Assembly (NCBI GenBank): GCA_036252695.1
Contig: GCA_036252695.1_4122.1
From: a phage
Reading direction: 5' to 3' (one strand)
DNA: 64,000 nt
The notes under the pieces are model-generated. The model was given only the letters and a program-made list of their open reading frames with translations, was not told the origin of the DNA and did not search any database. Of this stretch, positions 3,728-17,493 are shown one piece after another; within the stretch, counting starts at the first letter, position 1, and each line of letters opens with the position of its first letter. Position numbers and translations under genes: made by a program.

Positions 3728-3967
3728 ATGGCTAAATCAAAAATGTTCTTAGGTCACAAAAACAAAACTCATTGGAATGTAAGCCTTTGGATTAATAACG
3801 ATGAGGCATTGTATCGGCTGGCCCAGGACTTTATTGCCGCCAATACTAATCGTAATGATGCGGCCCGTCATATGATGCTATTTTTAGAACAGACTGGGCA
3901 AGATAAAACTCCAGACGGCTTTAAGTATAGCACTACTGCGATCCGTGCGGCGATGGTTGGAATGTAA
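3728..3967 (+). CDS. hypothetical early protein (paralog of 5770..6009)
   Basis: RBS aagagga; shares GHKNKTHWNVSLWINN and TPDGFKYSTTAIRAAMVGM with 5770 gene. Confidence 0.7.
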   Translation: MAKSKMFLGHKNKTHWNVSLWINNDEALYRLAQDFIAANTNRNDAARHMMLFLEQTGQDKTPDGFKYSTTAIRAAMVGM

Positions 3968-4055
3968 TAGAATAGAATTTATTTAAAGTACTATTGCACG
4001 GTGATAGTACTTTATAATAGTGTTTTATTCATACACCAACGATAAGGGCAACAGC

Positions 4056-4322
4056 ATGAATATTAAGTATTTTGCGACGCGTGAACAAGCTCGGATCGCC
4101 GCACGCCAGGACGGGGCAACGTTTAAAGATATGGGCGTACAATCGGAACGTGGTAAACGTTGGGCCATTGTAAAGCGTAGTACCGCCAGATCATTACAGT
4201 ACTGGTTAGCGGCCTTAAAAAGTCCCGATAGTGTATCGCGACGAGTGGTAGAAATAAAGCTCGACCGAAAGGGCAACCGCGTGACCGTGTACCGTACTAA
4301 AAAGATTGCAGTACTTGAATAA
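4056..4322 (+). CDS. hypothetical early protein (paralog of 17098..17493)
   Basis: FATREQARI...RKGNRVTVY shared with 17098 gene; upstream promoter has a 13-nt spacer (weak). Confidence 0.6.
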   Translation: MNIKYFATREQARIAARQDGATFKDMGVQSERGKRWAIVKRSTARSLQYWLAALKSPDSVSRRVVEIKLDRKGNRVTVYRTKKIAVLE

Positions 4323-4329
4323 AAAGTAC

Positions 4330-4388
4330 TTGCAAACTATGTTTAATGGCGTATAATGTTTTACATCGAGAGCGGGAACACTTCCCGC
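4330..4388 (+). promoter_or_regulatory. sigma70 promoter + 5' stem-loop cassette
   Basis: -35 TTGCAA 4330-4335, -10 TATAAT 4352-4357, hairpin gcgggaacacttcccgc. Confidence 0.75.
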
Positions 4389-4409
4389 CTATAACCTGGA
4401 GTAATAAAA

Positions 4410-4640
4410 ATGACTAATATGTATATGACTGAAGTTAAAACTGTAAAAGATACTACCACGAATAAAACTACTTACTTACAGCGGATCTGCGGTGTATGGC
4501 AACGTATCAGCAAATCAAAGTACTATAAATTAACATCATATGCAAACCGTTCGGATTCATTCAGTACTGAAATAAAAGGTAATAAAGTACACCAATACGG
4601 CACTTATTATTATTATAGCCTGGACGCGATTGCAGTATAA
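4410..4640 (+). CDS. hypothetical early protein
   Basis: RBS ctggagt; ORF track. Confidence 0.6.
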   Translation: MTNMYMTEVKTVKDTTTNKTTYLQRICGVWQRISKSKYYKLTSYANRSDSFSTEIKGNKVHQYGTYYYYSLDAIAV

Positions 4641-4887
4641 GCAGTTTACAAATCTTTACAATTGCCGGTATTGACTTATTTTGTCAGTACTGGCATAATG
4701 TATTCATTGGCAGATAAGCCGTAGCCCATAGGGTGCGGGAGTGTATCTATAGAAAAAGTAGTTTAGTATAGTTACAATTGTGCACCCGGTGGGTTAGCTG
4801 TTGTCATGGGGTATATTATGCCAGTACTTGATAATGCTGTCAATACTTTTTTAATATTCAGTACTGAAAACTATTTTTAAAAAGTAC

Positions 4888-4915
4888 TTGCAAACTATGT
4901 TTAAAGGCGTATAAT
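4888..4915 (+). promoter_or_regulatory. sigma70 promoter (upstream of conserved 80-nt leader)
   Basis: -35 TTGCAA 4888-4893, -10 TATAAT 4910-4915. Confidence 0.65.
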
Positions 4916-4921
4916 GTTTTA

Positions 4922-5000
4922 CATCAGGACGGGGAACGAAATAAGTAACTTCCCGTTAAGTAGCCCAGGAGTAAGGCACACGAAAAACTCCCCTGATAAA
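4922..5000 (+). ncRNA. candidate small RNA / structured leader, copy 1
   Basis: ~80 nt between two tandem promoters; near-identical copy at 15897-15976; no ORF. Confidence 0.25.
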
Positions 5001-5005
5001 ATAGT

Positions 5006-5035
5006 TTGACAAATGTTTTTTTAAAAGCGTATAAT
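5006..5035 (+). promoter_or_regulatory. sigma70 promoter
   Basis: -35 TTGACA 5006-5011, -10 TATAAT 5030-5035. Confidence 0.65.
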
Positions 5036-5067
5036 ACTTACATCAACTACTGAATGAGGGTTACAAA

Positions 5068-5679
5068 ATGAAAACTATCACTACTACTACTTATGTTATG
5101 GATTTTTCTGAATTGAACGCAGAACAAAAAACGTCAGCTATCGAACTGGTTCGGGATCGTGAGCGTTCATGCGGTGATTATTTCTTTTCTGAGGGCGTAT
5201 ACGAATACTATAAAGAAACAATTTTGCCGGAGTATGGCATTGATGACGCTGATTTGCAATTCAGTGGTTTTTGGTCGCAAGGTGACGGTGCATCAATTAG
5301 TACTGACCACGTTGACGCAGTGAAGTTTTTACGTAAGGTAAGAGCATTAACTAAGTATCGCTCAATCCGGCACCTGCTGAATGAAGATGATTTGGCGATG
5401 AGTGTAAAGCGTTATCACTACCACTACTCGCATGAGAATACTGTAAGCGGGTACATTGAATCGGCTTACACTGATTTAACCGCAAAACAAGAAACGTTAG
5501 TTAATGAGCTTGAGGAACTACTCACTGACACTATTCGTGAATTGTCCCGCAAGTTGTACCGTGATTTAGAGAATGCATATGAGGATCAATTCACTACTGA
5601 AAACATTACGGCACTGATTGAGGGTAACGAATATCAATTCAATGTTATTGATGGCGTAGTAGAATCAATCGAATATTAA
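5068..5679 (+). CDS. hypothetical acidic protein (203 aa)
   Basis: RBS gaggg; ORF track. Confidence 0.7.
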   Translation: MKTITTTTYVMDFSELNAEQKTSAIELVRDRERSCGDYFFSEGVYEYYKETILPEYGIDDADLQFSGFWSQGDGASISTDHVDAVKFLRKVRALTKYRSIRHLLNEDDLAMSVKRYHYHYSHENTVSGYIESAYTDLTAKQETLVNELEELLTDTIRELSRKLYRDLENAYEDQFTTENITALIEGNEYQFNVIDGVVESIEY

Positions 5680-5691
5680 TTTAAAAAGTAC

Positions 5692-5751
5692 TTGCAAACT
5701 AAGTTTAAAAGCGTATAATACTTTATATCGAGGCGGGGAGTGGTTCCCCGC
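5692..5751 (+). promoter_or_regulatory. sigma70 promoter + 5' stem-loop cassette
   Basis: -35 TTGCAA 5692-5697, -10 TATAAT 5714-5719, hairpin gcggggagtggttccccgc 5733-5751. Confidence 0.75.
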
Positions 5752-5769
5752 TCAAACGAGGATTTAAAA

Positions 5770-6009
5770 ATGGCTAGTACTAAAACTTACAACGGACACA
5801 AAAACAAAACTCATTGGAATGTAAGCCTTTGGATTAATAACGGTGAGTCATTGTATCGGCTTGCTCAAAGTTGCATCGCACAAAGTAGAACTAAAGATAT
5901 TGCAGCGGAATGTATGTACCGCAGATTAAAAGCCAACGGTACTACTACAACGCCGGACGGCTTTAAGTATAGCACTACTGCGATCCGTGCTGCAATGGTT
6001 GGAATGTAA
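5770..6009 (+). CDS. hypothetical early protein (paralog of 3728..3967)
   Basis: RBS gagga; identical C-terminal 19 aa to 3728 gene. Confidence 0.7.
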   Translation: MASTKTYNGHKNKTHWNVSLWINNGESLYRLAQSCIAQSRTKDIAAECMYRRLKANGTTTTPDGFKYSTTAIRAAMVGM

Positions 6010-6067
6010 TATTCAGTACTGTAACAATGGCGGGGAATGGTTCCCGCCTTTATTGAGGGTTTATCTA

Positions 6068-6328
6068 ATGAGTAAAGTAATTAACTATACAGTACTAAGC
6101 AAGTCATTATCTATCAGTCATTGCACCGATGGTTATTGGCTATTTGATGAAACGCGTGGCATGAATTTAGCTATGCGTGCAAAAACTGCTGAGGCGGCGT
6201 ATATTCAAGCACTGGAATACTACCAGGAACGTTTAAAGGAAGTAGAAGAAGATTATAAAAGCCTCAAAGCGAAAGTAGATCATTTCGTCGGTCAATTCAT
6301 CGAGGAAGACGACGACAAACAATATTGA
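6068..6328 (+). CDS. hypothetical early protein
   Basis: RBS tgagggt before ATG 6068; hairpin ggcggggaatggttcccgcc 6029-6048 upstream. Confidence 0.55.
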   Translation: MSKVINYTVLSKSLSISHCTDGYWLFDETRGMNLAMRAKTAEAAYIQALEYYQERLKEVEEDYKSLKAKVDHFVGQFIEEDDDKQY

Positions 6329-6336
6329 AAAAGTAC

Positions 6337-6396
6337 TTGCAATTAGTTTCAAGTACTGTATAATGGTTTACATCAAAGGGGGAAATGGTTCTCCCT
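6337..6396 (+). promoter_or_regulatory. sigma70 promoter + 5' stem-loop cassette
   Basis: -35 TTGCAA 6337-6342, -10 TATAAT 6359-6364, hairpin agggggaaatggttctccct. Confidence 0.75.
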
Positions 6397-6414
6397 GGTA
6401 ATGAGGAAAATAAA

Positions 6415-6636
6415 ATGGCTAATATCACTACTCTTTCCCAACTGGAAGCACTGGTTAAATCTATGCGGGAACATGCCGACAAAATCGGCGTACAAGATCC
6501 AGCCGTTTGCTTCTGCGACGAATTGAATGATGATACACTGGTAATAGCAGAAGTCCAGGACGTTTCTAACTATTCCTCGCGTTACACTGGCGGCGTAGCA
6601 AATAAAGGTGACTTCTGTTTATACCTTACAAAATAA
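6415..6636 (+). CDS. hypothetical early protein
   Basis: RBS gagga; ORF track frame. Confidence 0.65.
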   Translation: MANITTLSQLEALVKSMREHADKIGVQDPAVCFCDELNDDTLVIAEVQDVSNYSSRYTGGVANKGDFCLYLTK

Positions 6637-6640
6637 CAAC

Positions 6641-6671
6641 GCGGGGAGATAATAACTCCCCGTTACTTTTT
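6641..6671 (+). terminator. intrinsic terminator
   Basis: cggggag...ctccccg stem followed by ttacttttt. Confidence 0.55.
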
Positions 6672-6804
6672 CAGTACTGAATCATTTAATAGACGGATCT
6701 ATGCACCCGGTGGGTTAGTGACTGTTTCGTCTTGATGTAGTAATTATGCCAGTACTGGATGCACTTGTCAACAATTATTTTTCAAATACTTTTTATTAAA
6801 ATAC

Positions 6805-6859
6805 TTGCAATTAGTTTTTAAACGCGTATAATGTTTTGCATAGGGGGAGCGGTTCCCCT
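6805..6859 (+). promoter_or_regulatory. sigma70 promoter + 5' stem-loop cassette
   Basis: -35 TTGCAA 6805-6810, -10 TATAAT 6827-6832, hairpin gggggagcggttcccc. Confidence 0.75.
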
Positions 6860-6879
6860 GGTAACTAAGGAATAATAAA

Positions 6880-7137
6880 ATGCTTGAACAAATCAAATCA
6901 ACGTCTGCGAATGTAACGGGAACGGTAGCACACTTTACTAGTGATGAATCGCGGGGCGTTCCCTATTGTGCTGTACATGTAAACACTGAGGGTAACTACT
7001 GGTTTACGGTTTACGGATCATATTCATTTGGACGGCCAGGGCATCAAAAAATTCTGGATAAAGTACAACCAACGGGTAAAAATATCACTGCCGAAATGTT
7101 TTATAAAAATCATAAAGTACTTGATAATAGTTTTTAG
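6880..7137 (+). CDS. hypothetical early protein
   Basis: RBS aaggaa; ORF track. Confidence 0.65.
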   Translation: MLEQIKSTSANVTGTVAHFTSDESRGVPYCAVHVNTEGNYWFTVYGSYSFGRPGHQKILDKVQPTGKNITAEMFYKNHKVLDNSF

Positions 7138-7180
7138 TACTGTATAATATTTTACATCGCAAGGGGGAGCGGTTCCCCCT
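7121..7180 (+). promoter_or_regulatory. sigma70 promoter + 5' stem-loop cassette
   Basis: -35 TTGATA 7121-7126, -10 TATAAT 7143-7148, hairpin agggggagcggttccccct. Confidence 0.7.
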
Positions 7181-7199
7181 GGTAACTAAGGATAATCAA

Positions 7200-7499
7200 A
7201 TGAAAATTGCAATCATCGCCCTGGCTTTATCTGTTTCCTCTTTCGCTGTTAATGCGTCATTAGATGTAAGTAGTGAAAAATTCATTCAGTGCACTGTTGC
7301 AATGACCGATGAAAGAACTGGCGAGATTGTATTAAAGGATTTAGAGATCCAGCCAGAAGCATTTAAAAACGGGCCGTTCCATGAAGAAGACGAAAAAGGT
7401 AGCACGACAATTTATTACGATGCAAGTACTAAACGCGGTTCGGTCACTGTTATGGATACTGAGAAAGTAACTCATACTGGCGTTATTAATTGCCGTTGA
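7200..7499 (+). CDS. putative secreted/periplasmic protein with N-terminal signal peptide
   Basis: N-term MKIAIIALALSVSSFAVNA is signal-peptide-like (hydrophobic core, AxA-type cleavage site). Confidence 0.65.
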   Translation: MKIAIIALALSVSSFAVNASLDVSSEKFIQCTVAMTDERTGEIVLKDLEIQPEAFKNGPFHEEDEKGSTTIYYDASTKRGSVTVMDTEKVTHTGVINCR

Positions 7500-7520
7500 T
7501 AGATACTACGGGGTAACATC

Positions 7521-7751
7521 ATGACTAAGCGAATTGTTTTACTTAACGAAAGCAGTACTACACAACTACTTAACGCCGTGCATTATGATATTGAAACGAG
7601 CGTTAATCTTATCAGTACTGTAGTACTATTGGACACTGGAAAGGTCGCCAATGATAAAGCGATTGCAGGTATATTAACGGATCTTGAGCCTGGTAGCAGT
7701 GCACCAATAACGTTAAATGGTAAAGTGTTTAATATTTTACTCACTGATTAA
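7521..7751 (+). CDS. hypothetical early protein
   Basis: RBS gggg; ORF track. Confidence 0.55.
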   Translation: MTKRIVLLNESSTTQLLNAVHYDIETSVNLISTVVLLDTGKVANDKAIAGILTDLEPGSSAPITLNGKVFNILLTD

Positions 7752-7757
7752 GTACAT

Positions 7758-7786
7758 AGCCCACCTGGTGGGCTTTTTTGTTTTTG
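7758..7786 (+). terminator. intrinsic terminator
   Basis: agcccacctggtgggc hairpin + ttttttgtttttg. Confidence 0.8.
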
Positions 7787-7833
7787 TAGTATCGTAGTAC
7801 TGAGATACTTTAAAAATAGTTTTAAAAAAGTAG

Positions 7834-7861
7834 TTGACATTACCACAAAAAGGCGTAGAAT
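7834..7861 (+). promoter_or_regulatory. sigma70 promoter with ~120-nt leader
   Basis: -35 TTGACA 7834-7839, -10 TAGAAT 7856-7861; leader resembles the 4922 leader family. Confidence 0.65.
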
Positions 7862-7984
7862 GTATTACATCAAGACGGGGAGCACTAAGTAGACCGCCAG
7901 TAAGTCGAACGAAAAACTGGACACGTCGAGAAAACTTTGATACACTAATAAACGTAAACTAAACTTTAATTGAGGATTTATAAA

Positions 7985-8467
7985 ATGGCTAATGTAAAAT
8001 CATTCATCAAAGCACTGGTAGCAAATGAAACTAACGTAGCGGCAGAGATCCTGGCTGAACTGGATAACGATACCATGAAAGCGGTACGCAATAATTTTAA
8101 CATCGCTTACAGTACTGCGAAAGAACTACAAGCAAATAAAGCGGCAGAAATTGAAGCGGCAAAGGCGGCCCGTGAAGCAGAACTACAAGCAACAATTGAA
8201 AGTATCCAGGCGGCAGTAGTTGGATTGGATCTGGAAGTAGTTACAGAGATGGCACAAAAAGCCCTGGCGGTTAAGTATGGGGAAGACAAGCCAGAAGTAA
8301 AAGCCAAAAAATGGATTCAGGAACGCGTAGCGGTAGTACTGGACAACGGGGAAGAATATCTGATTCCGGTGCGTGGTAACTGCATTGCGGTAGTACTGGA
8401 TGCGATTAACTCCAGTGGTATGACTCGCGAGGAATGGATCGAAGCTCATCGCAAAGTGGAAGCATAA
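7985..8467 (+). CDS. hypothetical Ala/Glu-rich protein (160 aa, coiled-coil-like)
   Basis: RBS gagga; KAAEIEAAKAAREAELQA segment. Confidence 0.7.
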   Translation: MANVKSFIKALVANETNVAAEILAELDNDTMKAVRNNFNIAYSTAKELQANKAAEIEAAKAAREAELQATIESIQAAVVGLDLEVVTEMAQKALAVKYGEDKPEVKAKKWIQERVAVVLDNGEEYLIPVRGNCIAVVLDAINSSGMTREEWIEAHRKVEA

Positions 8468-8488
8468 CAATTAAAGTACTGAATCACT

Positions 8489-8516
8489 AGCCCACTGCAT
8501 AAGTGGGCTTTTTTGT
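8489..8516 (+). terminator. intrinsic terminator
   Basis: gcccact...agtgggc hairpin + tttttt. Confidence 0.8.
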
Positions 8517-8668
8517 GTTTATCGTTTACCAGGCCACCAGCACCGCCTAGAATCGATTCTAACGCATTAAACTGATTATCTGATGCATCGCCCTAGCTGG
8601 TGGCGTTAAGGTCGTTAGAATGCGATTGAGAGCGTTTAAAGTATTTTGCAAAAAGTAATAAAAAGTAC

Positions 8669-8727
8669 TTGCACGATTAAGAGATTAGCGTATAATGTTT
8701 TACATCGAGAGGGGGAAACGGTTCTCC
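8669..8727 (+). promoter_or_regulatory. sigma70 promoter + 5' stem-loop cassette
   Basis: -35 TTGCAC 8669-8674, -10 TATAAT 8691-8696, GC hairpin. Confidence 0.7.
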
Positions 8728-8751
8728 TTCCAAATCAAAGGAATTAAAACA

Positions 8752-8979
8752 ATGGCTATCGTAATCACTCGCGTAACTGGTACTACTGGCAATTCTTCTA
8801 CTGTTGCTGTAATTACTAATAAGAAAGGTGCGGAACTACATTTTGCAATGTATAACTGGTCAGTTGATGAGTTTGGTCAGTACGCTAGTGTAGAATACAT
8901 TGAAACCTATCAAGTGCCGTCGATTAGTTTAACTGATTTGGGCGTTGAGCGTATCCTTTGCCTGGATGAATTAAATTAA
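8752..8979 (+). CDS. hypothetical early protein
   Basis: RBS aaagga; ORF track frame. Confidence 0.65.
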   Translation: MAIVITRVTGTTGNSSTVAVITNKKGAELHFAMYNWSVDEFGQYASVEYIETYQVPSISLTDLGVERILCLDELN

Positions 8980-8987
8980 AAAAGTAC

Positions 8988-9047
8988 TTGCAAAGTAAAT
9001 CGAATAAAGTATAATACATTACATCAAGGGGAGAAATGGTTCTCCCT
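8988..9047 (+). promoter_or_regulatory. sigma70 promoter + 5' stem-loop cassette
   Basis: -35 TTGCAA 8988-8993, -10 TATAAT 9010-9015, hairpin ggggagaaatggttctccc. Confidence 0.75.
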
Positions 9048-9065
9048 GATAATGAGGAAACTAAT

Positions 9066-9209
9066 ATGAAAACTTGTCAATGTGGTAAAAAATCTATTAC
9101 TGGTTTAAAGCGGGGCGTTGCTCTTTGTCAGTACCATTATAATTTACAAGTATGGGGTAAAGAATGGGCCGACCAGGTGGAAGCAGCAAAGAAAGCAAAA
9201 AGTAAGTAA
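9066..9209 (+). CDS. small Cys-rich protein (47 aa; not in ORF track)
   Basis: RBS gagga; MKTCQCGKK...LCQYHYN; own promoter cassette. Confidence 0.5.
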   Translation: MKTCQCGKKSITGLKRGVALCQYHYNLQVWGKEWADQVEAAKKAKSK

Positions 9210-9288
9210 AAATATTATCACAGTACTATTGACATAGTTTGATAGTACTGACATAATAGATTTTATCAAGACAACTGAGGAAAATAAA
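9208..9288 (+). repeat. duplicated ~80-bp promoter module (copies at 9502-9590 and 12580-12662)
   Basis: aaatattatcacagtactattgacatagtttgatagtactg(a/g)cataata in all three copies. Confidence 0.85.
9229..9257 (+). promoter_or_regulatory. sigma70 promoter
   Basis: -35 TTGACA 9229-9234, 17-nt spacer, -10 CATAAT 9252-9257. Confidence 0.7.
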
Positions 9289-9501
9289 ATGGCTATCATC
9301 ACTAAAATCAAAGTAAGTAAAACCCTGGTTAAACTTGAACAAGTGAAAGCAGGTTATAAAGTATCTTGGTGCGGTATGTATCGGATGTTCGCAGATATTG
9401 ATGAAGCAATCAATTATTACAGCGACACGGTTAAAAACTTTGTTCGTGCTGATGTGGTTATGGCAGTGGCAACGCACAAAGCAGCGAAAGAAAGTAAGTA
9501 A
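9289..9501 (+). CDS. hypothetical early protein (MAII family; paralog of 12663..12842)
   Basis: RBS gagga; ORF track. Confidence 0.65.
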   Translation: MAIITKIKVSKTLVKLEQVKAGYKVSWCGMYRMFADIDEAINYYSDTVKNFVRADVVMAVATHKAAKESK

Positions 9502-9520
9502 AAATATTATCACAGTACTA

Positions 9521-9549
9521 TTGACATAGTTTGATAGTACTGGCATAAT
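9521..9549 (+). promoter_or_regulatory. sigma70 promoter
   Basis: -35 TTGACA 9521-9526, -10 CATAAT 9544-9549. Confidence 0.7.
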
Positions 9550-9590
9550 AGATTTTATCAAGACAACATATTAATTTAAGGAATACAAAA

Positions 9591-9914
9591 ATGGCTAAAA
9601 CTATCATTAACACCGTTTCCCTGGCTGCAATCCGTGCAATCAATGTTGACGGTAAACGTTGGACTGATTCATATGGCAATACTTATCATTCTTGTCATGT
9701 AAGCGTCGAACTGGATAACGGTTTGAATGATCTGGCGGTTGAATCATTTACTTATGGCTATGAAGATGCATATCAACAAACGGCGTTAGATCTATTAAAG
9801 GAATCAGTAGACGGGCTTAATACTGATGAAACCTCCCTTACTCGTTTGTGCAATGATCTTAATATCCCGTTGCATTGTACTGTACAGAATGTTAAACGCA
9901 AAAAAGATCTTTAA
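9591..9914 (+). CDS. hypothetical early protein (paralog of 16675..16998)
   Basis: Shares RWTDSxGNTYHSC...ETFTYGY...KRKKD with 16675 gene. Confidence 0.7.
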   Translation: MAKTIINTVSLAAIRAINVDGKRWTDSYGNTYHSCHVSVELDNGLNDLAVESFTYGYEDAYQQTALDLLKESVDGLNTDETSLTRLCNDLNIPLHCTVQNVKRKKDL

Positions 9915-9994
9915 TTAGCTTTACTTTATGCAGATACTTTGATATAGTGTCTGCATAGGGGAAAGAAATTAAATTAACTTAAGAGGAACGTATA

Positions 9995-11256: not shown

Positions 11257-11316
11257 TTGCAATTAGTTTTTAAACGCGTATAATGTTTTACATGAAGGGG
11301 AGAAATGATTCTCCCC
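11257..11316 (+). promoter_or_regulatory. sigma70 promoter + 5' stem-loop cassette
   Basis: -35 TTGCAA 11257-11262, -10 TATAAT 11279-11284, hairpin ggggagaaatgattctcccc. Confidence 0.75.
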
Positions 11317-11334
11317 AATAACAGGAGAAACAAA

Positions 11335-11487
11335 ATGAAACAATACAACGCTCGGTTTGATGTTACTATCGGTAACGGCAAAGGTCAATTCTCTTTCAGT
11401 ACTCGCAAAAGTTATACAGAAAACTTCCTGCGTAATTGTGCACTGACCGCCGCACAAATTAAACATTACTTTCAGGCTAAAAAATGA
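11335..11487 (+). CDS. small hypothetical protein
   Basis: RBS caggag; ATG 11335. Confidence 0.55.
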   Translation: MKQYNARFDVTIGNGKGQFSFSTRKSYTENFLRNCALTAAQIKHYFQAKK

Positions 11488-11573
11488 AATCATTAGCTTA
11501 TTACAGTTCGGCCCTGGTCGGTGCATTGATCGCGGCGTTGTTAGTAACCTATCTATTCTTTATGGTGATTTAA
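11484..11573 (+). CDS. 29-aa hydrophobic micropeptide (putative single transmembrane helix)
   Basis: ATGA overlap with upstream stop; MKSLAYYSSALVGALIAALLVTYLFFMVI. Confidence 0.35.
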   Translation: MKSLAYYSSALVGALIAALLVTYLFFMVI

Positions 11574-11717
11574 ATGAATCCAACAGGTTTAAACTATAAA
11601 AGTTGTTCGGCGTTTACGAAAGCAAATAAAGCGAATGCACGTAAAGCGAAAGTAAAGGAGTACATCAAGCAAGGCATGACGCGAAAGGCGGCGATTCTAA
11701 AAGCTAAAAATAAATGA
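11574..11717 (+). CDS. 47-aa basic micropeptide
   Basis: Starts immediately after stop of preceding micropeptide; Lys-rich. Confidence 0.3.
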   Translation: MNPTGLNYKSCSAFTKANKANARKAKVKEYIKQGMTRKAAILKAKNK

Positions 11718-11910
11718 AAAAAGTGGTTGACTCCGGTCAGCCATTTTGCTATTATATATTCATTGAGAGATAGCTCACTAGCCCACAGGGTGCATAAGTG
11801 TATCTATTATATAAGTATTGAGTACTGAAAACTATTTTAAAAAAGTACTTGCAAACTATCTCAATAAGCGTATAATGTTTTACATCGAAAGGGGAAACGG
11901 TTTCCCCTGG
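11717..11910 (+). repeat. dispersed ~190-bp intergenic module (hairpin/promoter + AGCCCAC box + promoter cassette)
   Basis: Near-identical to 19012-19205; contains TTGACT 11727-11732 / TATTAT 11750-11755 inside a hairpin, and agcccacagggtgc. Confidence 0.85.
11849..11908 (+). promoter_or_regulatory. sigma70 promoter + 5' stem-loop cassette
   Basis: -35 TTGCAA 11849-11854, -10 TATAAT 11871-11876, hairpin aggggaaacggtttcccct. Confidence 0.75.
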
Positions 11911-11927
11911 TAATAAGGAAACAAATC

Positions 11928-12269
11928 ATGACTATCTCAATTGCTCAATCTAACTTTGAAAACGAAATCATCGCCCAGGCACTGCGTTTAAATGATGGTC
12001 GGGCCGAAATTAATTACGGTTTCAATTCAGGCGGTTGTGAAAAATATCAGTACTTTGTAACGGCTGATGGCGGTGTCCTGGGTATCAATACAGTTATTGT
12101 AAACATCCAAAAAATTAATTTCAATGATCCAGACGATAGCCAGTTTTACATCACTGGCGTAGACGTGAACTATGAGGATGACTCACTAACTGATGATCAC
12201 ACTGGCGAGCGGTTAGAAAGTGCATACGGTGAAGATGATTATCAGTCCGGTCCAGAAGATTTCGAATAA
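11928..12269 (+). CDS. hypothetical acidic protein
   Basis: RBS aaggaa; ORF track. Confidence 0.65.
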   Translation: MTISIAQSNFENEIIAQALRLNDGRAEINYGFNSGGCEKYQYFVTADGGVLGINTVIVNIQKINFNDPDDSQFYITGVDVNYEDDSLTDDHTGERLESAYGEDDYQSGPEDFE

Positions 12270-12284
12270 TATAAAAAAAATAGT

Positions 12285-12344
12285 TTGACAATAGATTATA
12301 GTACTGTATAATAGTTTACATCAAGGGGAGAAAAACTTCTCCCC
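12285..12344 (+). promoter_or_regulatory. sigma70 promoter + 5' stem-loop cassette
   Basis: -35 TTGACA 12285-12290, -10 TATAAT 12307-12312, hairpin ggggagaaaaacttctcccc. Confidence 0.75.
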
Positions 12345-12366
12345 ACTAACAGAGAGAGAAAACAAA

Positions 12367-12579
12367 ATGGCTAATATCCGGTCGAAATTAAAAAATGCAA
12401 AACAAGTTTTATTTTCAGATCATGAATACTTTAATAAAGATATTACAGGAGTTACAAGTATCAAGGAAGTAAAAGAAAAAACCGGCGTTTTGTGTGATGT
12501 GCGATTAGTTGGGACATTTGGGAATAACGTGCTATATCGCTGCGGTGATTACAATTTTACACTGACTATCATTAACTAA
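12367..12579 (+). CDS. hypothetical early protein
   Basis: RBS agagaga; ORF track. Confidence 0.6.
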   Translation: MANIRSKLKNAKQVLFSDHEYFNKDITGVTSIKEVKEKTGVLCDVRLVGTFGNNVLYRCGDYNFTLTIIN

Positions 12580-12598
12580 AAATATTATCACAGTACTA

Positions 12599-12627
12599 TT
12601 GACATAGTTTGATAGTACTGACATAAT
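12599..12627 (+). promoter_or_regulatory. sigma70 promoter
   Basis: -35 TTGACA 12599-12604, -10 CATAAT 12622-12627 (third copy of the 9208 module). Confidence 0.7.
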
Positions 12628-12662
12628 AACTTTTATCAACTACACTACTAAGGAATTAAAAA

Positions 12663-12842
12663 ATGGCTATCATCGCAAAAACTGAAATCGTTGGTCTGGA
12701 TTCTATCATCATGACGTTTGAAGATCAAAAAGGTATGTATGTAGTTTCCTATGGTGATTATGTTCGGGAGTATGAAACGGTAGACGAAGCCTTTGAAAGT
12801 TATATTCGCCAGGTGAATAAAGCATACGACGACTACCGCTAA
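12663..12842 (+). CDS. small protein (59 aa; MAII family; not in ORF track)
   Basis: RBS aaggaa; MAIIAKTEIV... resembles 9289 gene N-terminus. Confidence 0.5.
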   Translation: MAIIAKTEIVGLDSIIMTFEDQKGMYVVSYGDYVREYETVDEAFESYIRQVNKAYDDYR

Positions 12843-12869
12843 AATATATTACCAGTACTATTAAATCTA

Positions 12870-12897
12870 TTGACAACGTTTGATAGTACTGTATAAT
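12870..12897 (+). promoter_or_regulatory. sigma70 promoter
   Basis: -35 TTGACA 12870-12875, -10 TATAAT 12892-12897. Confidence 0.7.
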
Positions 12898-12941
12898 AAG
12901 TTTTATAAACAGTAGTTAACTTAACCTAAGAGAGAAATAAA

Positions 12942-13085
12942 ATGATCGCACTGGATTCATTCATCGACGCAGTACTGGCAAAAACTGGCGAGGATCTGAC
13001 CGCAGAACAATACGCGATGATCGAGCAATGTCAGCAAAACGGTAAATCGGTGAAAGATACTGTTAAGATTATCCGCAAGATGTAA
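12942..13085 (+). CDS. small hypothetical protein (47 aa; not in ORF track)
   Basis: RBS aagagaga; terminator-like hairpin follows. Confidence 0.45.
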   Translation: MIALDSFIDAVLAKTGEDLTAEQYAMIEQCQQNGKSVKDTVKIIRKM

Positions 13086-13091
13086 GATTAT

Positions 13092-13125
13092 AGCCCACTG
13101 GTTAACGCTGGTGGGCTTTAATCAT
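13092..13125 (+). terminator. possible intrinsic terminator
   Basis: agcccactgg...ctggtgggct hairpin; weak T tract. Confidence 0.4.
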
Positions 13126-13190
13126 TTACCCTATACAATGCCAGTACTAAACCGTTTATCTCGTTAGAATGCGTTACAGGACGTTTAACA

Positions 13191-13388
13191 ATGATTAGCA
13201 TGAAATCAGTACAAAAACAAATAGAAACATTATCAAAAATTAAACGTAAACAATACTCCTTAGAATATACAATCAATGGTAACTATCATCTAATGAAAGA
13301 AAATAATTTTATAGTCATTGATGAATCATTGCAAATTATTAGTATAGTACTGAAAGCATTAATCAATGACAGAAAAAAATTAAAATAA
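13191..13388 (+). CDS. hypothetical AT-rich small protein
   Basis: ORF track; weak RBS; composition differs from neighbours. Confidence 0.35.
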   Translation: MISMKSVQKQIETLSKIKRKQYSLEYTINGNYHLMKENNFIVIDESLQIISIVLKALINDRKKLK

Positions 13389-13392
13389 TCTA

Positions 13393-13421
13393 TTGACAAT
13401 ATCCTCCAGTACTGGCATAAT
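13393..13421 (+). promoter_or_regulatory. sigma70 promoter with ~300-nt leader
   Basis: -35 TTGACA 13393-13398, -10 CATAAT 13416-13421. Confidence 0.6.
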
Positions 13422-13481
13422 ACTTACATCAAGACGAGAACGTCACTAACCCATAGGGTGCACAAATGTAACTATATAATA

Positions 13482-13558
13482 TCGATCAATAAATGATCAA
13501 AAAAGTACTGGATCAATTTAGCATAAGGAGTATAATTCTGATCAATTCTTGATCAAAG
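13482..13558. repeat. cluster of five GATCAA motifs (Dam-site cluster)
   Basis: GATCAA at 13484, 13495, 13511, 13540, 13551. Confidence 0.7.
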
Positions 13559-13717
13559 GCAATAAACGCAGTTGAATTTATATAGACAATACGAAGGCGT
13601 TACTATCCGTGGTAATGCTGGTGGATATGTAGTATCATGTGGTTTGAATAAGATTAGCACTAGTAGTATTATTGTAGCATTACAGTACTATAGTATTTTT
13701 ATAATGAGGTTAAAATA

Positions 13718-13975
13718 ATGGCTGTAGGATTTGCGAAGGACGGGGCCGAACAAGACGAGATTAACGCAGTGATTCAGGCCGCCGTAAACCACGCTAGAAA
13801 GCAAATTAACGCACAAATAGAATCACTGATACATTGCCTCGACTGTGGCGATAAAATCCCTGAGAATCGCCGCCAGGCTGTTAAGGGATGTAAGTACTGC
13901 ATAACTTGCCAGGAGGATCATGATAGTACTTTTAAAAGAGATCCGCGTAATTGTTGGCATAGATCTATGAGATAA
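13718..13975 (+). CDS. DksA/TraR-family C4 zinc-finger protein
   Basis: CLDCGDKIPENRRQAVKGCKYCITCQ fits the C-x2-C-x17-C-x2-C TraR/DksA zinc-finger pattern. Confidence 0.6.
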   Translation: MAVGFAKDGAEQDEINAVIQAAVNHARKQINAQIESLIHCLDCGDKIPENRRQAVKGCKYCITCQEDHDSTFKRDPRNCWHRSMR

Positions 13976-13981
13976 AAAGTA

Positions 13982-14009
13982 TTGACAGTACTGAAAGATA
14001 GTGTATAAT
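13982..14009 (+). promoter_or_regulatory. sigma70 promoter
   Basis: -35 TTGACA 13982-13987, -10 TATAAT 14004-14009. Confidence 0.7.
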
Positions 14010-14038
14010 ATTTTATATCTTAACTGAGGATAGTAATC

Positions 14039-14395
14039 ATGGGAATACAACATATCACGCGTACTACTGACAATGGTGAGATCACTGGCTATCAAGTACA
14101 GGGCAAAGTAGCACAATTGCAGTACTGGTTTGAAAAACGTGGAATCATTGCACCGGATCTTGATTATGACCGTGTAGCGTTTATTGATTCTCTTTATGTT
14201 GATCCTGATAGTCGGGGCAATGGTGAAGGTAACGAATTAATGAATGCCTTTATCGATGCCGCCGATGATTCAGATTGTATCATCTTAGAATGCGATACGG
14301 GAGAAGATAACGCCTTTAATCTTAAAGAATGGTACGAAGGTTTTGGATTCGAGGTACTGATCGATAGTGAATATCCTATCATGATTTTATCATAG
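14039..14395 (+). CDS. putative small GNAT-family acetyltransferase
   Basis: RGNGEGNELM (motif A-like R-G-x-G-x-G) and NAFNLKEWYEGFGF (motif B-like); 118 aa. Confidence 0.45.
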   Translation: MGIQHITRTTDNGEITGYQVQGKVAQLQYWFEKRGIIAPDLDYDRVAFIDSLYVDPDSRGNGEGNELMNAFIDAADDSDCIILECDTGEDNAFNLKEWYEGFGFEVLIDSEYPIMILS

Positions 14396-14398
14396 TAC

Positions 14399-14466
14399 TT
14401 GCATTTAGTTTTCAGTACTGTTATAGTACTTACATCAAGGGGAAACGTCTTCCCCTACTAAGAGGA
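14399..14466 (+). promoter_or_regulatory. sigma70 promoter + 5' stem-loop cassette
   Basis: -35 TTGCAT 14399-14404, -10 TTATAG 14421-14426, hairpin aggggaaacgtcttcccct. Confidence 0.6.
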
Positions 14467-14473
14467 AATGAAA

Positions 14474-14662
14474 ATGGAAAACTTATCAAGTATTTTAGTA
14501 CAAGATGATTTCGGTAATCCTGGAAGTGCTATCATAGTTCGGGGCAATAAAGCAACGTTTGTTCTTGCTGGTGGGCCAGTACAGCGTAGCATTAAAAATA
14601 ATGCTGTTACCATTAATAATGTACGCTATCGCTTAGATAAAGAATTAATTAAAAATATGTAA
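14474..14662 (+). CDS. small hypothetical protein
   Basis: RBS aagagga 8 nt upstream of ATG 14474. Confidence 0.55.
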   Translation: MENLSSILVQDDFGNPGSAIIVRGNKATFVLAGGPVQRSIKNNAVTINNVRYRLDKELIKNM

Positions 14663-14687
14663 TATTAACTCAATAGGAAAACGATAA

Positions 14688-15011
14688 ATGTATATTCACA
14701 CTACTATCACAAAAGAAGTCCGTTGTCAATTCGAAAGTATCCCAGGTGTATGTTTCATTACAGGCACTTTCTCACCTGGTGACCGTGATAATCCAGTACT
14801 GTTACAATTACGCCATCCATCATGGGATAAAGCATTTGATCTACCGTTGAATGAATTCGCAACTACTGCTGAAAAGTACATTAAAAATATTCGCGAGAAT
14901 GATCGACTATTCATTAATGCTTTCAGTGATTCCGCGTTAAGCGAGATTCATGCGGTACTAGTTGCAATCATGGAATCAATGCAGAAAACTAAATTCAAAC
15001 AAGGTGAATAA
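14688..15011 (+). CDS. hypothetical early protein
   Basis: RBS aggaaaa; ORF track. Confidence 0.6.
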   Translation: MYIHTTITKEVRCQFESIPGVCFITGTFSPGDRDNPVLLQLRHPSWDKAFDLPLNEFATTAEKYIKNIRENDRLFINAFSDSALSEIHAVLVAIMESMQKTKFKQGE

Positions 15012-15017
15012 AAACTA

Positions 15018-15076
15018 TTGACAATGCAATCCAGTACTGTATAATAAGTTACATGAAGGGGAGAAATGATTCTCCC
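15018..15076 (+). promoter_or_regulatory. sigma70 promoter + 5' stem-loop cassette
   Basis: -35 TTGACA 15018-15023, -10 TATAAT 15040-15045, hairpin ggggagaaatgattctcccc. Confidence 0.75.
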
Positions 15077-15095
15077 CAGTACTGAGGAAAGAAAA

Positions 15096-15308
15096 ATGCA
15101 AGGTCAACTAATCGTTCGTAAATGGTCTGATACTAACGCTAAACCGTGGGATGTACAATACATCGCCCCCAATGGTGAATCCAGATATCAACCAGGTGTA
15201 ACGCATAGTACTGAGCAATTTGCCGCCGCTCACCGTGAACGACTGTTACAATCCATGCAGCAAGGCTTCGGTGAAAAATTCATTCAGGATCATTGGCTGA
15301 AAGATTAA
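15096..15308 (+). CDS. hypothetical early protein
   Basis: RBS gaggaaa; ATG 15096. Confidence 0.6.
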   Translation: MQGQLIVRKWSDTNAKPWDVQYIAPNGESRYQPGVTHSTEQFAAAHRERLLQSMQQGFGEKFIQDHWLKD

Positions 15309-15315
15309 AAAGTAC

Positions 15316-15374
15316 TTGCACAGTACTGAATAAAGTGTATAATGTTTTATATCGAGAGGGGAACTATTCCCCTC
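15316..15374 (+). promoter_or_regulatory. sigma70 promoter + 5' stem-loop cassette
   Basis: -35 TTGCAC 15316-15321, -10 TATAAT 15338-15343, hairpin gaggggaactattcccctc. Confidence 0.7.
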
Positions 15375-15394
15375 CTAACAAAAAGGAAAGTATA

Positions 15395-15568
15395 ATGATC
15401 CAAGTAGAATTATCAGTACTGAAAGATCTATTTTATCGGTTAGGTACTAATGGCGAGTATCCTAAAAGTGATACCGCAAAACTTTTTGTATCACTCGACT
15501 TATGGCAACGCGAACAATTAGTAATGTCGTGGCGTAAAGGTAAAGCAGATCGCGAGGTGAAAGCATGA
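15395..15568 (+). CDS. small hypothetical protein
   Basis: RBS aaggaaa; ATG 15395. Confidence 0.55.
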   Translation: MIQVELSVLKDLFYRLGTNGEYPKSDTAKLFVSLDLWQREQLVMSWRKGKADREVKA

Positions 15569-15714
15569 AAGAATTCTTATTCGAAGTAGTGTTTCAAGGT
15601 GTCGGTAGTAACCAACTGATTCGCTCAAGTGGTTATAATGTTAACCAGGCATGGAATAACATTAAACAAATGTACCCGAACGCTATCACATATCGCAACC
15701 CGAAAGAAGTTTAA
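15565..15714 (+). CDS. small hypothetical protein (49 aa; not in ORF track)
   Basis: ATGA overlap with upstream stop; MKEFLFEVVFQGV... Confidence 0.35.
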   Translation: MKEFLFEVVFQGVGSNQLIRSSGYNVNQAWNNIKQMYPNAITYRNPKEV

Positions 15715-15724
15715 AAATAATTGA

Positions 15725-15900
15725 AAAAGGGATTGACTCCGGTCAATCCCTTTGCTATTATATACGCATAGAAACAAATTAGCCCACCGGGTGCATAAAT
15801 GTATCTATTGTTTGCTGGTGGCTAGTACTATCAAGTACTGAAAACTATTTTTAAAAAAGTACTTGCATTGTACTTAGAATCAAGTATAATGTTTTACATC
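15725..15900 (+). repeat. dispersed ~175-bp intergenic module (copy similar to 20941-21105)
   Basis: Perfect hairpin gggattgactccggtcaatccc with embedded TTGACT/TATTAT; agcccaccgggtgc box. Confidence 0.85.
15864..15890 (+). promoter_or_regulatory. sigma70 promoter (upstream of conserved leader copy 2)
   Basis: -35 TTGCAT 15864-15869, -10 TATAAT 15885-15890. Confidence 0.65.
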
Positions 15901-15976
15901 AGGACGGGGAACGAAATAAGTAACTTCCCGTTAAGTAGTCCAGGAGTAAGACATACGAAAAACTCCCCTGATAAAA
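15897..15976 (+). ncRNA. candidate small RNA / structured leader, copy 2
   Basis: Near-identical to 4922-5000 with a few substitutions; between tandem promoters. Confidence 0.25.
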
Positions 15977-15980
15977 TAGT

Positions 15981-16008
15981 TTGACAATAGAAATTAAACG
16001 AGTATAAT
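15981..16008 (+). promoter_or_regulatory. sigma70 promoter
   Basis: -35 TTGACA 15981-15986, -10 TATAAT 16003-16008. Confidence 0.7.
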
Positions 16009-16040
16009 ACTTACATCAACCACTGATAAGGAAACATAAA

Positions 16041-16316
16041 ATGCGGATTCTACTGACAGCTAACGAAATCGAACAAGTACTGACTACTAACCTGGAAGAC
16101 TGGAAACGTGAAGCAGATATCCAGTCGGTTCAATGGCTTAACGATAAGTTAACGCCGGATGACTTAAGCAAGATTGTAGATCCTCAATTCTACGAAGATA
16201 TCCACGACACCGCGTTAAGCGTCGAGGATGTACTAGATAAGCACTTTATTGATACAGATTTGCAGGTTTACGGTCGTAAAAACTTTATCACTATTCACGA
16301 CATTTACAATACTTAA
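16041..16316 (+). CDS. hypothetical acidic protein
   Basis: RBS aaggaaa; ORF track. Confidence 0.65.
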   Translation: MRILLTANEIEQVLTTNLEDWKREADIQSVQWLNDKLTPDDLSKIVDPQFYEDIHDTALSVEDVLDKHFIDTDLQVYGRKNFITIHDIYNT

Positions 16317-16319
16317 GTA

Positions 16320-16382
16320 TTGACAAAGTATCTTAGTACTGTATAATAGTTTACATCAAGTGAGGGGAAACGGTTCCCCTCC
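16320..16382 (+). promoter_or_regulatory. sigma70 promoter + 5' stem-loop cassette
   Basis: -35 TTGACA 16320-16325, -10 TATAAT 16342-16347, hairpin gaggggaaacggttcccctc; duplicated at 16591. Confidence 0.75.
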
Positions 16383-16404
16383 TAACAAAGAGAGAGAAAT
16401 AAAA

Positions 16405-16587
16405 ATGGCTAAGTGCACTATCTGCAAGAAAGAAATAGTATTAGTTCCAAGTGCCCGTGAACGTGCCGCTCGGTTTGGTGGCAAAGCGTCAGACTATACA
16501 AAAATGTTTACTGCCCATACAGCTTGCCAGGTAGCAAAACGTTCACAAGAAAGCGTAGAATTAATGCGTAAACTTTCCAAAAAATAA
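16405..16587 (+). CDS. small Cys-containing protein (possible zinc ribbon)
   Basis: MAKCTICKKE...HTACQ; RBS agagagaga. Confidence 0.55.
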   Translation: MAKCTICKKEIVLVPSARERAARFGGKASDYTKMFTAHTACQVAKRSQESVELMRKLSKK

Positions 16588-16590
16588 GTA

Positions 16591-16652
16591 TTGACAAAGT
16601 ATCTTAGTACTGTATAATAGTTTACATCAAGTGAGGGGAATGGTTCCCCTCC
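16591..16652 (+). promoter_or_regulatory. sigma70 promoter + 5' stem-loop cassette
   Basis: -35 TTGACA 16591-16596, -10 TATAAT 16613-16618, hairpin gaggggaatggttcccctc. Confidence 0.75.
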
Positions 16653-16674
16653 TAACAAAAAGAGAGAAATTAAA

Positions 16675-16998
16675 ATGACTATGATCCTTACCCAGAAAGT
16701 AGAAATGAAAATTGTAACTTCCTTTGACATTAAAGTTAATCGGTGGACTGATAGCCACGGCAATACTTACCACTCATGCTACGTGTCTGCATTGATTGGT
16801 GACCGCTGGGAAGACCTGGGACATGAAACCTTTACTTACGGTTACGGTACACAAGGCGAATACACGGGCTTGGAGATCATTAAAGAAACCGTTATAGGTT
16901 TCAACCCGAAAGAAAAAGTTATTCACCGCATCGAGGAAGAGATCAACAAAGAAATTACAGTTCGTTACTACGATGTAAAACGTAAGAAAGACATGTAA
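16675..16998 (+). CDS. hypothetical early protein (paralog of 9591..9914)
   Basis: NRWTDSHGNTYHSC...ETFTYGYG...VKRKKDM. Confidence 0.7.
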   Translation: MTMILTQKVEMKIVTSFDIKVNRWTDSHGNTYHSCYVSALIGDRWEDLGHETFTYGYGTQGEYTGLEIIKETVIGFNPKEKVIHRIEEEINKEITVRYYDVKRKKDM

Positions 16999-17020
16999 TA
17001 GAATCCATTTAAAGTACTAT

Positions 17021-17049
17021 TTGACATTGCCCAGATAGTACTTTATAAT
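17021..17049 (+). promoter_or_regulatory. sigma70 promoter
   Basis: -35 TTGACA 17021-17026, 17-nt spacer, -10 TATAAT 17044-17049. Confidence 0.7.
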
Positions 17050-17097
17050 AGACTCTAACTTGTAGTACTAATTAACTTAACTAATAGGATGTACACC

Positions 17098-17493
17098 ATG
17101 ATTACTAAATTCTTCGCTACCCGTGAACAAGCTCGCATCGTTGCCCGTGAAGAAGGTGAAACATTTAAAGACATGGGCAAAGATGCACCGAAAGGACAAC
17201 GCTGGGCGGTACAGTTCAAAGAGATCTCTGATATTGTGAATTCACCTGAACCAGTACTTACTGAAGCAGAACTGAAGAAAGCTCAAGAACTGGCTGAAGT
17301 ACTGAACGCTCAAGATGACTTCTTGAAAGGTTCTGATATTCAAGTACAAGTGAATAGTAATGCATGGACTCACGCGGATCACCTGGCAAACCTTAAGCGT
17401 CCAAGTGAACTGATTCGTAACCAGAAAGAGATTCGTCATGACCGTAAAGGAAACCGTGTAACAGTATACAGTAAACGCCGCCAGGTTATCTAA
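17098..17493 (+). CDS. hypothetical early protein (paralog of 4056..4322)
   Basis: FATREQARIVAREEGETFKDMG...RKGNRVTVY. Confidence 0.65.
   Translation: MITKFFATREQARIVAREEGETFKDMGKDAPKGQRWAVQFKEISDIVNSPEPVLTEAELKKAQELAEVLNAQDDFLKGSDIQVQVNSNAWTHADHLANLKRPSELIRNQKEIRHDRKGNRVTVYSKRRQVI

Follow-up and report, generated by a model that had tools for sequence, protein, structure and literature searches.

The question raised by the 64,000-nucleotide stretch of phage DNA analysed here (contig GCA_036252695.1_4122.1, hereafter the window) is how one genome comes to carry, between positions 3728 and 17493, four pairs of small look-alike genes: 3728 and 5770 (family 1), 4056 and 17098 (family 2), 9591 and 16675 (family 3) and 9289 and 12663 (family 4), each gene being named by its first position. 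The original prediction, made from the sequence, took them for diverged paralogs and, together with duplicated promoter modules, for a sign of ongoing duplication and divergence in the early region. Open reading frames (ORFs) are present at all eight positions on the + strand, where the upstream features described below also lie. The comparisons make it likely that these genes are old paralogs or diverged types, carried in promoter-plus-gene cassettes that have been gained, lost and swapped by recombination, partly between coliphage groups.

Megablast of bases 3000-18000 matched about 200 phage records and identifies the source of the window as an Asteriusvirus-type Escherichia coli jumbo phage of the PBECO4/121Q/fEgEco12 group: fEgEco12, an Escherichia phage, was the top match (94% identity, 76% coverage), other PBECO4/121Q-like Asteriusvirus jumbo phages ranked next, and no record covered 80% or more of the query. 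Base 1 of fEgEco12 aligns with base 1576 of the window and, since the direct terminal repeat of fEgEco12 has been physically mapped as 20,993 bp (PMC13070987), the terminal repeat would correspond to about 1576-22750. All eight genes fall inside this region of ~21 kb, and match numbers are doubled in records deposited with both repeat copies. The + strand of this early region (1576..22750) carries about 50 small genes and about 40 strong sigma-70-type promoters, a small gene lying behind each; promoter-like sites number 103, against 58.6 +/- 8.1 in shuffled sequences. The commonest module has the order TTG(C/A)(A/C)A-16-TATAAT, ..ACATC.., GC hairpin, ribosome binding site and ATG, and a second promoter class, TTGACA-17-CATAAT (9229, 9521, 12599), has no hairpin. 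Hairpins of -14 to -16 kcal/mol at the transcript 5' end were found for 3728, 5770 and 16675, and for none of the other five genes. Rfam and tRNA scans of the whole window returned no matches, and the fEgEco12 and Sharanji genome papers mention neither promoters nor paralogs. The genomes compared were five Asteriusviruses (fEgEco12, PBECO4, 121Q, Turkey3 and the more distant EJP2), two Alcyoneusviruses (RaK2 and KP13-7) and five coliphages of ~140-150 kb (phiWec190, nieznany, phi92, rV5 and A7_1).

The four pairs proved to be real paralogs, all above chance. Pairwise alignments are significant for the pairs of families 1 to 3, each of which shares a PHROG (E 6e-29 to 7e-41), and the family 4 pair is significant by profile-profile comparison. 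Genes 3728 (3728..3967) and 5770 (5770..6009), both of 79 amino acids and matching PHROG 871, are 66% identical over 79 residues (BLASTP E 1e-35, Smith-Waterman z = 55; 2000 shuffles here and below), and the predicted sharing of GHKNKTHWNVSLWINN and of the last 19 residues holds exactly. Genes 4056 (4056..4322, 88 amino acids) and 17098 (17098..17493, 131 amino acids), both of PHROG 8127, are 36% identical over a 125-column alignment (E 4e-18, z = 28); they share FATREQARI and RKGNRVTVY as proposed, the second motif reading DRKGNRVTVY. Genes 9591 (9591..9914) and 16675 (16675..16998), both of 107 amino acids and PHROG 6246, are 37% identical over their 107 residues (E 3e-26, z = 38); the motifs reported for them are present, except that ETFTYGY occurs only in 16675, where 9591 reads ESFTYGY. 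Pfam gave no match for families 2, 3 and 4.

These relationships are old. Every copy that the four PBECO4-like Asteriusviruses possess is 83-100% identical in amino acids to the window copy, whereas the paralogs within the genome are 32-66% identical. The ratio of nonsynonymous to synonymous substitution rates (dN/dS) between orthologs is 0.03-0.27, from which it follows that these are real genes under purifying selection. Between paralogs, where this ratio was proposed as a check, dS is 0.69 in pair 1; in pairs 2-4 it is saturated or undefined, which makes the ratio uninformative there. Given the gap between orthologs and paralogs and these dS values, the paralog splits predate the divergence of the sampled genomes, and by this measure no pair is a recent duplicate. 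The word "ongoing" in the prediction is therefore not supported for the duplication: both copies are old, conserved in relatives and under purifying selection. This bears directly on the first alternative explanation, a gene duplication still running within this early region and followed by gradual divergence, with the duplicated promoter modules produced by the same process. It would account for the DNA similarity of three pairs, which includes the upstream promoter, for the restriction of two-copy families 2 and 3 to the Asteriusviruses (RaK2 has one copy of family 2 and EJP2 one of family 3) and for 77-nt repeats, 99% identical, that flank 9289, but none of the pairs is a recent duplicate, and families 1 and 4 behave otherwise.

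In family 1 both products carry DUF7249 (PF23907), with 45.5 bits for 3728 and 50.7 bits for 5770 against a gathering score of 27 bits, as do 253 of 253 database homologs of the family. The domain is also present in T7-like and cyanobacterial phages; no paper on DUF7249 or PF23907 was found in the literature, and a PDB sequence search with the family 1 profile gave nothing meaningful. The AlphaFold2 (AF2) model of 3728 is a small helical bundle with a predicted local distance difference test (pLDDT) score of 88.7. DNA similarity spans gene and upstream promoter (3628-3969 with 5670-6011, 77% identity). The promoter module of 3728 (3628..3727) contains TTGCAA-16-TATAAT at 3649-3676, a GC hairpin of -14.2 kcal/mol in the 5' leader and a ribosome binding site; that of 5770 (5670..5769) has its promoter at 5692-5719 and a hairpin of -15.6 kcal/mol, and the two promoters have the spacer ACTAAGTTTAAAAGCG in common.

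Gene 3728 is 97-99% identical in amino acids to its counterparts in 121Q, PBECO4 and fEgEco12 and 95% identical to that of Phapecoctavirus nieznany. Gene 5770, an accessory cassette gene, is 100% identical in Turkey3, 95% in PBECO4 and 91% (89% in nucleotides) in the Vequintavirinae phage A7_1, and 94% identical to genes of three ~150-kb phages with a single family 1 locus, 118_SA_NWU among them; among the Asteriusvirus regions compared it is absent from 121Q and fEgEco12. It is also 100% identical in Ecwhy_1, a phage placed in the species cluster of fEgEco12 by the fEgEco12 paper (PMC13070987). The family 1 tree has two clades, with Asteriusvirus and Vequintavirinae/Stephanstirmvirinae genes in each, and for either type the nearer kin are found in other phage subfamilies, the second copy of its own genome being more distant. 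Since phages of ~145-150 kb with one family 1 locus hold either type (nieznany the 3728-type, 118_SA_NWU the 5770-type), 3728 and 5770 correspond to alternative alleles of one locus in other phages. Collinear blocks common to the window and fEgEco12 or 121Q break at 5762-5772 and 5677-5681, in the module of 5770. The divergence of the pair is mosaic rather than uniform, nucleotides 31-90 and 181-237 being 93-100% identical and the centre ~43%, and an AGC or TCN serine codon in the conserved N-terminal block sorts independently of type across phages; both features point to probable recombination inside family 1 genes.

Family 4 consists of two types. Type a, 9289 (9289..9501, 70 amino acids, PHROG 35559), is an accessory cassette gene found in ~21 phage records at a coverage of at least 80%, being 83% identical in A7_1 and 51% in Klebsiella phage KP13-7, and it is absent from fEgEco12. 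Type b, 12663 (12663..12842, 59 amino acids, PHROG 9374), is present in five of the five sampled Asteriusviruses (97-100% identity in the four PBECO4-like ones, 75% in EJP2) and, outside the genus, reaches 75% in rV5 and Phapecoctavirus and 46% in RaK2. The 9289 cassette lies between two 77-nt direct repeats: the left copy (9199..9275), which has no hairpin, starts in the final codons of gene 9036 and takes in TTGACA-17-CATAAT (9229-9257), and the right copy (9491..9567), 99% identical to it, is the promoter of 9591; a third copy with 87% identity (12569..12645) is the promoter of 12663. At the corresponding site, empty in fEgEco12, there is one hybrid 77-nt copy, flanked on the left as the first repeat is and on the right as the second is. 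A7_1 has its 9289-type gene behind a homolog of gene 12367, in the slot held by 12663 in the window, and there the promoter repeat after the 9289 type is followed by a 5770-type gene instead of 9591.

Outside the genus, 5770 and 9289 have their nearest relatives in Vequintavirinae and related coliphages of ~145-150 kb (91-94% and 83% amino acid identity). Close relatives thus differ by the presence or absence of whole cassettes, and the types of families 1 and 4 occur at 83-95% identity in other phage subfamilies, acting there as alternative alleles. Together with the mosaic divergence of family 1, these observations largely contradict still-running duplication for families 1 and 4, and as an explanation of the region as a whole it appears unlikely.

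A second alternative concerns family 4 above all. The upstream modules of 9289 and 12663 are 87% identical (9203-9307 with 12573-12681), the DNA similarity ends 19 nt into the coding sequence, and the codons of the shared MAII start (ATGGCTATCATC) are part of this common promoter/start module, a start with MA being frequent among the early genes here. The similarity could thus be partly an artefact of shared or translated promoter-start modules, in MAII and in other N-terminal matches, and 9289 and 12663 could be unrelated proteins; they are in different PHROGs, and BLASTP does not detect the pair at E <= 0.01. Spurious matches of this kind do exist in the region: the ORFs starting at 3215, 8695, 10714 and 19171 begin inside the promoter module, where TATAATGTTTTACATCGAGAGCGGG is read as MFYIE(S/R)G..., and such longest ORFs explain BLASTP matches of E 1e-3 to 1e-7 between unrelated genes, while the MILP/MVLP..N.. 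starts of 6385, 9036, 11305 and 15066 have the same origin, from the hairpin. The similarity of 9289 and 12663, however, extends beyond the start. They are 32% identical over 47 columns, with a Smith-Waterman z of 5.9, or 4.3 without MAII, and hhalign of their ortholog profiles gave P 6.9e-5. Four intermediates, P0142-P0144 and P0147, came out of an exhaustive search with a hidden Markov model (HMM) of the 9289 profile, and they bridge the motifs YKVSY.G.YREF and (I/V)D.A..Y of the two types; with these included, P falls to 9e-9 (95.7%), and it is still 4.8e-6 when the first six residues are removed. Among 50 other early-gene families used as controls, the best P was 0.011. The two families are reciprocal best matches, one KP13-7 protein matches both, and both types hold the same slot in different phages. 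9289 and 12663 are very probably homologous, as judged from these profiles, and to regard them as unrelated proteins is correspondingly improbable; the MAII start named in the prediction is present in both genes, although by itself it is an insufficient basis for pairing them.

Two further observations touch this family. ORF 20078-20302, which has a weak tblastn match and a promoter repeat close by, was a candidate third member but was rejected, hhalign giving P 0.03-0.05. P0141, an 83-amino-acid metagenomic protein, combines an N-terminal part like the 5068 product with the 26 C-terminal residues of a 9289-type protein; a 9289-like gene directly follows the 5068 homolog in KP13-7, and P0141 appears to stem from a deletion by which two adjacent cassette genes were fused.

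Families 2 and 3 tell a different part of the story, as both do look like old duplications within the Asteriusvirus lineage. Both family 2 copies occur in all sampled Asteriusviruses (4056 with 90-100% identity), and both clades of the family include EJP2. The DNA similarity of the pair reaches upstream (3971-4136 with 16997-17178, 69% identity); the upstream region of 4056 (3971..4055), defined by this alignment, has neither a 5' hairpin nor a stable fold, and that of 17098 (16997..17097), also free of a hairpin, contains TTGACA-17-TATAAT at 17021-17049. The product of 17098 is longer than that of 4056 by ~45 central residues. RaK2 has one long family 2 copy (ORF353, 44% identity), located between homologs of 16041 and 17556, as 17098 is, and EJP2 has a 125-amino-acid long form in the slot of 4056; on these grounds 17098 would be the ancestral gene and 4056 an old duplicate that lost the central residues. 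The family 2 proteins are basic, with isoelectric points of 9.3-11, and those of 9591 and 12663 are acidic.

In family 3, the PBECO4-like phages have both copies (9591 with 94-100% identity among other Asteriusviruses) and EJP2 has one, the outgroup being phi92 gp231 (31-36% identity, 36% to 9591). Gene 16675 lies directly upstream of 17098, and in EJP2 a family 3 gene (4944-5276) is followed by a family 2 gene (5358-5654) in the same order. The promoter module of 16675 (16574..16674) has TTGACA-16-TATAAT at 16591-16618 and a 5' hairpin of -13.9 kcal/mol, and is 89% identical to the module at 16303-16378. The AF2 model of 9591, built from eight sequences (six of them relatives of 9591 from a word-indexed protein search), has a beta-beta-beta-alpha-beta-alpha-beta topology and a pLDDT of 85.3; a PDB sequence search with the family 3 profile gave nothing meaningful, and the matches of a BFVD search were limited to uncharacterised phage proteins. 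Membership of the RNase H-like fold nucleases, which would call for that fold plus catalytic carboxylates at canonical positions, was considered as a possibility for this family.

What was predicted as duplication and divergence in the early region is thus retained for families 2 and 3, as old lineage duplications, and replaced by diverged types for families 1 and 4. Synteny with relatives, named in the prediction as a check, supports the ancestral site of 17098, and among close relatives it varies by whole cassettes. The idea that the duplicated promoter modules belong to the same process fits the three pairs in which DNA similarity reaches the upstream promoter.

For the preferred reading, cassette gain, loss and exchange, the following sequence of events can be proposed. 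Each cassette consists of one small gene with its ribosome binding site behind a strong sigma-70 promoter, in many cases with a GC hairpin where the transcript begins, and the repeated promoter modules would offer short stretches of homology for recombination. Recombination between modules could insert, delete, duplicate or swap cassettes within the genome, and the same exchange could take place with co-infecting coliphages that use similar modules (Vequintavirinae, Stephanstirmvirinae). Families 2 and 3 would have arisen by old duplication within the Asteriusvirus lineage, with the later loss of ~45 central amino acids from 4056, while for families 1 and 4 the genome would hold two diverged types that are same-slot alternatives in other phages, the extra copies 5770 and 9289 being accessory cassettes recently gained or lost. 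What still continues would then be the gain, loss and exchange of entire cassettes at the promoter repeats, and a genome that keeps two diverged copies may reach more host or defence targets. Breakpoints between close relatives are consistent with this mechanism: 23 of 42 unique block ends fall in promoter modules, against 21% expected from module coverage (binomial p 2e-6), and recombination at the modules may be their cause.

Several points weigh against this reading. The breakpoint count comes from four close relatives, which are themselves interdependent; ~19 of the 42 breakpoints are not covered by the module definition, some of them being small hypervariable patches; and the modules fill nearly all intergenic DNA, which makes breakpoints in modules inseparable from breakpoints that simply spare genes. 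The trees are neighbour-joining trees of proteins of 59-131 amino acids. The family 3 paralogs have different upstream promoters, with none in common, and the reading does not account for the single EJP2 copy of family 3, which resembles 9591 in sequence but 16675 in position. Transfer between phage groups could have run in either direction, the label "early" is given to these genes from promoter sequence and location, and hairpins that lack U-tracts may not terminate transcription as the stem-loops of comparable phage modules do.

Such modules have been described in T4-type phages as promoter-early stem-loop (PeSL) cassettes subject to modular shuffling (Arbiol et al. 2010, PMC2839356; Comeau et al. 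2014, PMC4122927), and the criteria used here were taken from the first of these papers (PMC2839356). Here as there, strong promoters of sigma-70-like type recur, each with AT-rich sequence upstream and a GC stem-loop; behind each module, in a variable region, lies a small gene of unknown function; and insertions, deletions and replacements between close relatives end at the motifs (the modules here being roughly the intergenic DNA); the position of the 9289 cassette between direct promoter repeats is, as read from the sequence, the geometry that produces mini-circles. Unlike the T4-type case, the modules occupy the terminal repeat of a jumbo phage, an Asteriusvirus; in three of the eight genes and in most other modules the stem-loop comes just after the -10 box, within the transcript leader, mostly has no U-tract after it and may stabilise the mRNA instead of terminating transcription; the module class of 9229, 9521 and 12599 has no stem-loop; and exchange extends across phage subfamilies, at 83-95% amino acid identity. 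The eight genes are not new to the databases: dozens of genomes list them as hypothetical proteins, and PHROGs and Pfam already group them. Their evolutionary pattern adds one more case, in a new phage group, to a known kind, PeSL-type shuffling.

A second comparison is provided by the early clusters of rV5-like and phi92-like coliphages (Vequintavirinae and Stephanstirmvirinae; phi92 gp231-gp235, rV5 gp169), phages with genomes of ~140-150 kb that are otherwise unrelated to the window phage. These clusters contain homologs of all four families and the same promoter-hairpin-ribosome-binding-site layout, and in phiWec190 and nieznany the 12663-like, 9591-like and 3728-like genes adjoin. They differ in having one copy per family, the exceptions being A7_1 and A5-4, with two family 1 genes, and A7_1, with two of family 4; their relative of family 2 is a 55-amino-acid protein with the N-terminal motif only (hhalign P 4e-5, 16 columns).

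The pre-early genes of phage T5 are small host-takeover genes with host-type promoters in a long direct terminal repeat, which enter the cell first and are present in double dose. The Asteriusvirus early region resembles the T5 pre-early region in layout; no sequence relation was found, no search aimed at one having been made, and two-step DNA entry is not known for Asteriusviruses. Promoter type and location suggest that the genes studied here may have a role in host takeover or counter-defence.

Members of different families are also neighbours. In the window 9289 lies by 9591 (9289-9914), 16675 by 17098 (16675-17493) and 3728 by 4056 (3728-4322), and in Phapecoctavirus the 12663-like, 9591-like and 3728-like genes stand in a row, with a 55-amino-acid protein bearing FATRE.AR, the family 2 motif, two genes on; the loci that show these conserved neighbours in other phages are L002 2700-3671, L009 2497-3468 and L003 2800-3493. 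The four families may be functionally linked. A bolder proposal, which we hold only tentatively and consider rather doubtful, is that promoter-hairpin cassettes are the exchange format of an early-gene pool common to Asteriusvirus, Vequintavirinae and Stephanstirmvirinae, that the families form one linked set, and that the jumbo phage keeps two diverged versions of this set for variant host or defence targets.

The region and its surroundings contain other repeated elements and paralogs. A repeated non-coding element occupies ORF-free gaps at 11720-11817, 15724-15808, 19013-19112 and 20939-21033, with related copies at 4671-4760 and 13393-13485 and reverse-complement copies at 2635-2714, 2852-2931 and 6670-6749. 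It contains a 12-bp hairpin, AAAGGGATTGAC-TCCG-GTCAATCCCTTT, with a TTGACT -35 box inside, followed 17 nt on by TATTAT and then by the conserved CCCAYNGGGTGC; it has no Rfam match, and a composite terminator/promoter and a small RNA gene are both conceivable. A 139-nt repeat (4874-5012 and 15849-15987, 89% identical, with a similar stretch at 7834-7925), whose core is 89-92% identical to A7_1 (L005 2871-2957), comprises a strong promoter and a ~100-nt leader with an extended hairpin, contains no ORF and is followed closely by a second promoter, which makes it a candidate small RNA. Just past the terminal repeat, 22786-31113 (also 43762-44149) holds a tandem array of ~35 genes for proteins of ~63-97 amino acids, one diverged family in which members are 25-59% identical to one another, with E values as low as 1e-21; Pfam gave no match for two of them. 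More tandem paralog arrays are found at 38078-49149, including five adjacent ~150-amino-acid genes (39886-42186, 30-59% identical) and a ~110-165-amino-acid family at 38078-39876 with weaker relatives up to 49 kb; Pfam was empty for the two members tested. Upstream of the terminal-repeat boundary (47-1232) there are small tandem paralogs (47-232/234-419 and 425-634/823-1014/1026-1232), 823-1014 and 1026-1232 being 47% identical (E 4e-16).

Two early genes outside the four families deserve mention. The 194-amino-acid protein of 18419-19003 has weak, sub-cut-off protein-kinase matches in Pfam (E 1.5e-3 and 2.8e-3), and its homologs are annotated as serine/threonine kinase in related phages. The 99-amino-acid protein of 7200-7499 has an N-terminal signal-peptide-like sequence, MKIAIIALALSVSSFAVNA, and its fEgEco12 ortholog carries the annotation, here taken as putative, "protein spackle", the name of the lysozyme inhibitor by which T4 brings about superinfection exclusion.

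What began as a set of similar ORFs thus becomes a picture of a probable jumbo-phage host-takeover region that would evolve by promoter-delimited cassettes, which the phage retains, loses or exchanges with unrelated phages that share its host, and this would extend PeSL-type modular shuffling beyond T4-like phages. For annotation, several apparent N-terminal similarities in the region are translated promoter sequence and not protein homology. The four widespread families of small proteins are candidates for functional work on early infection or counter-defence.

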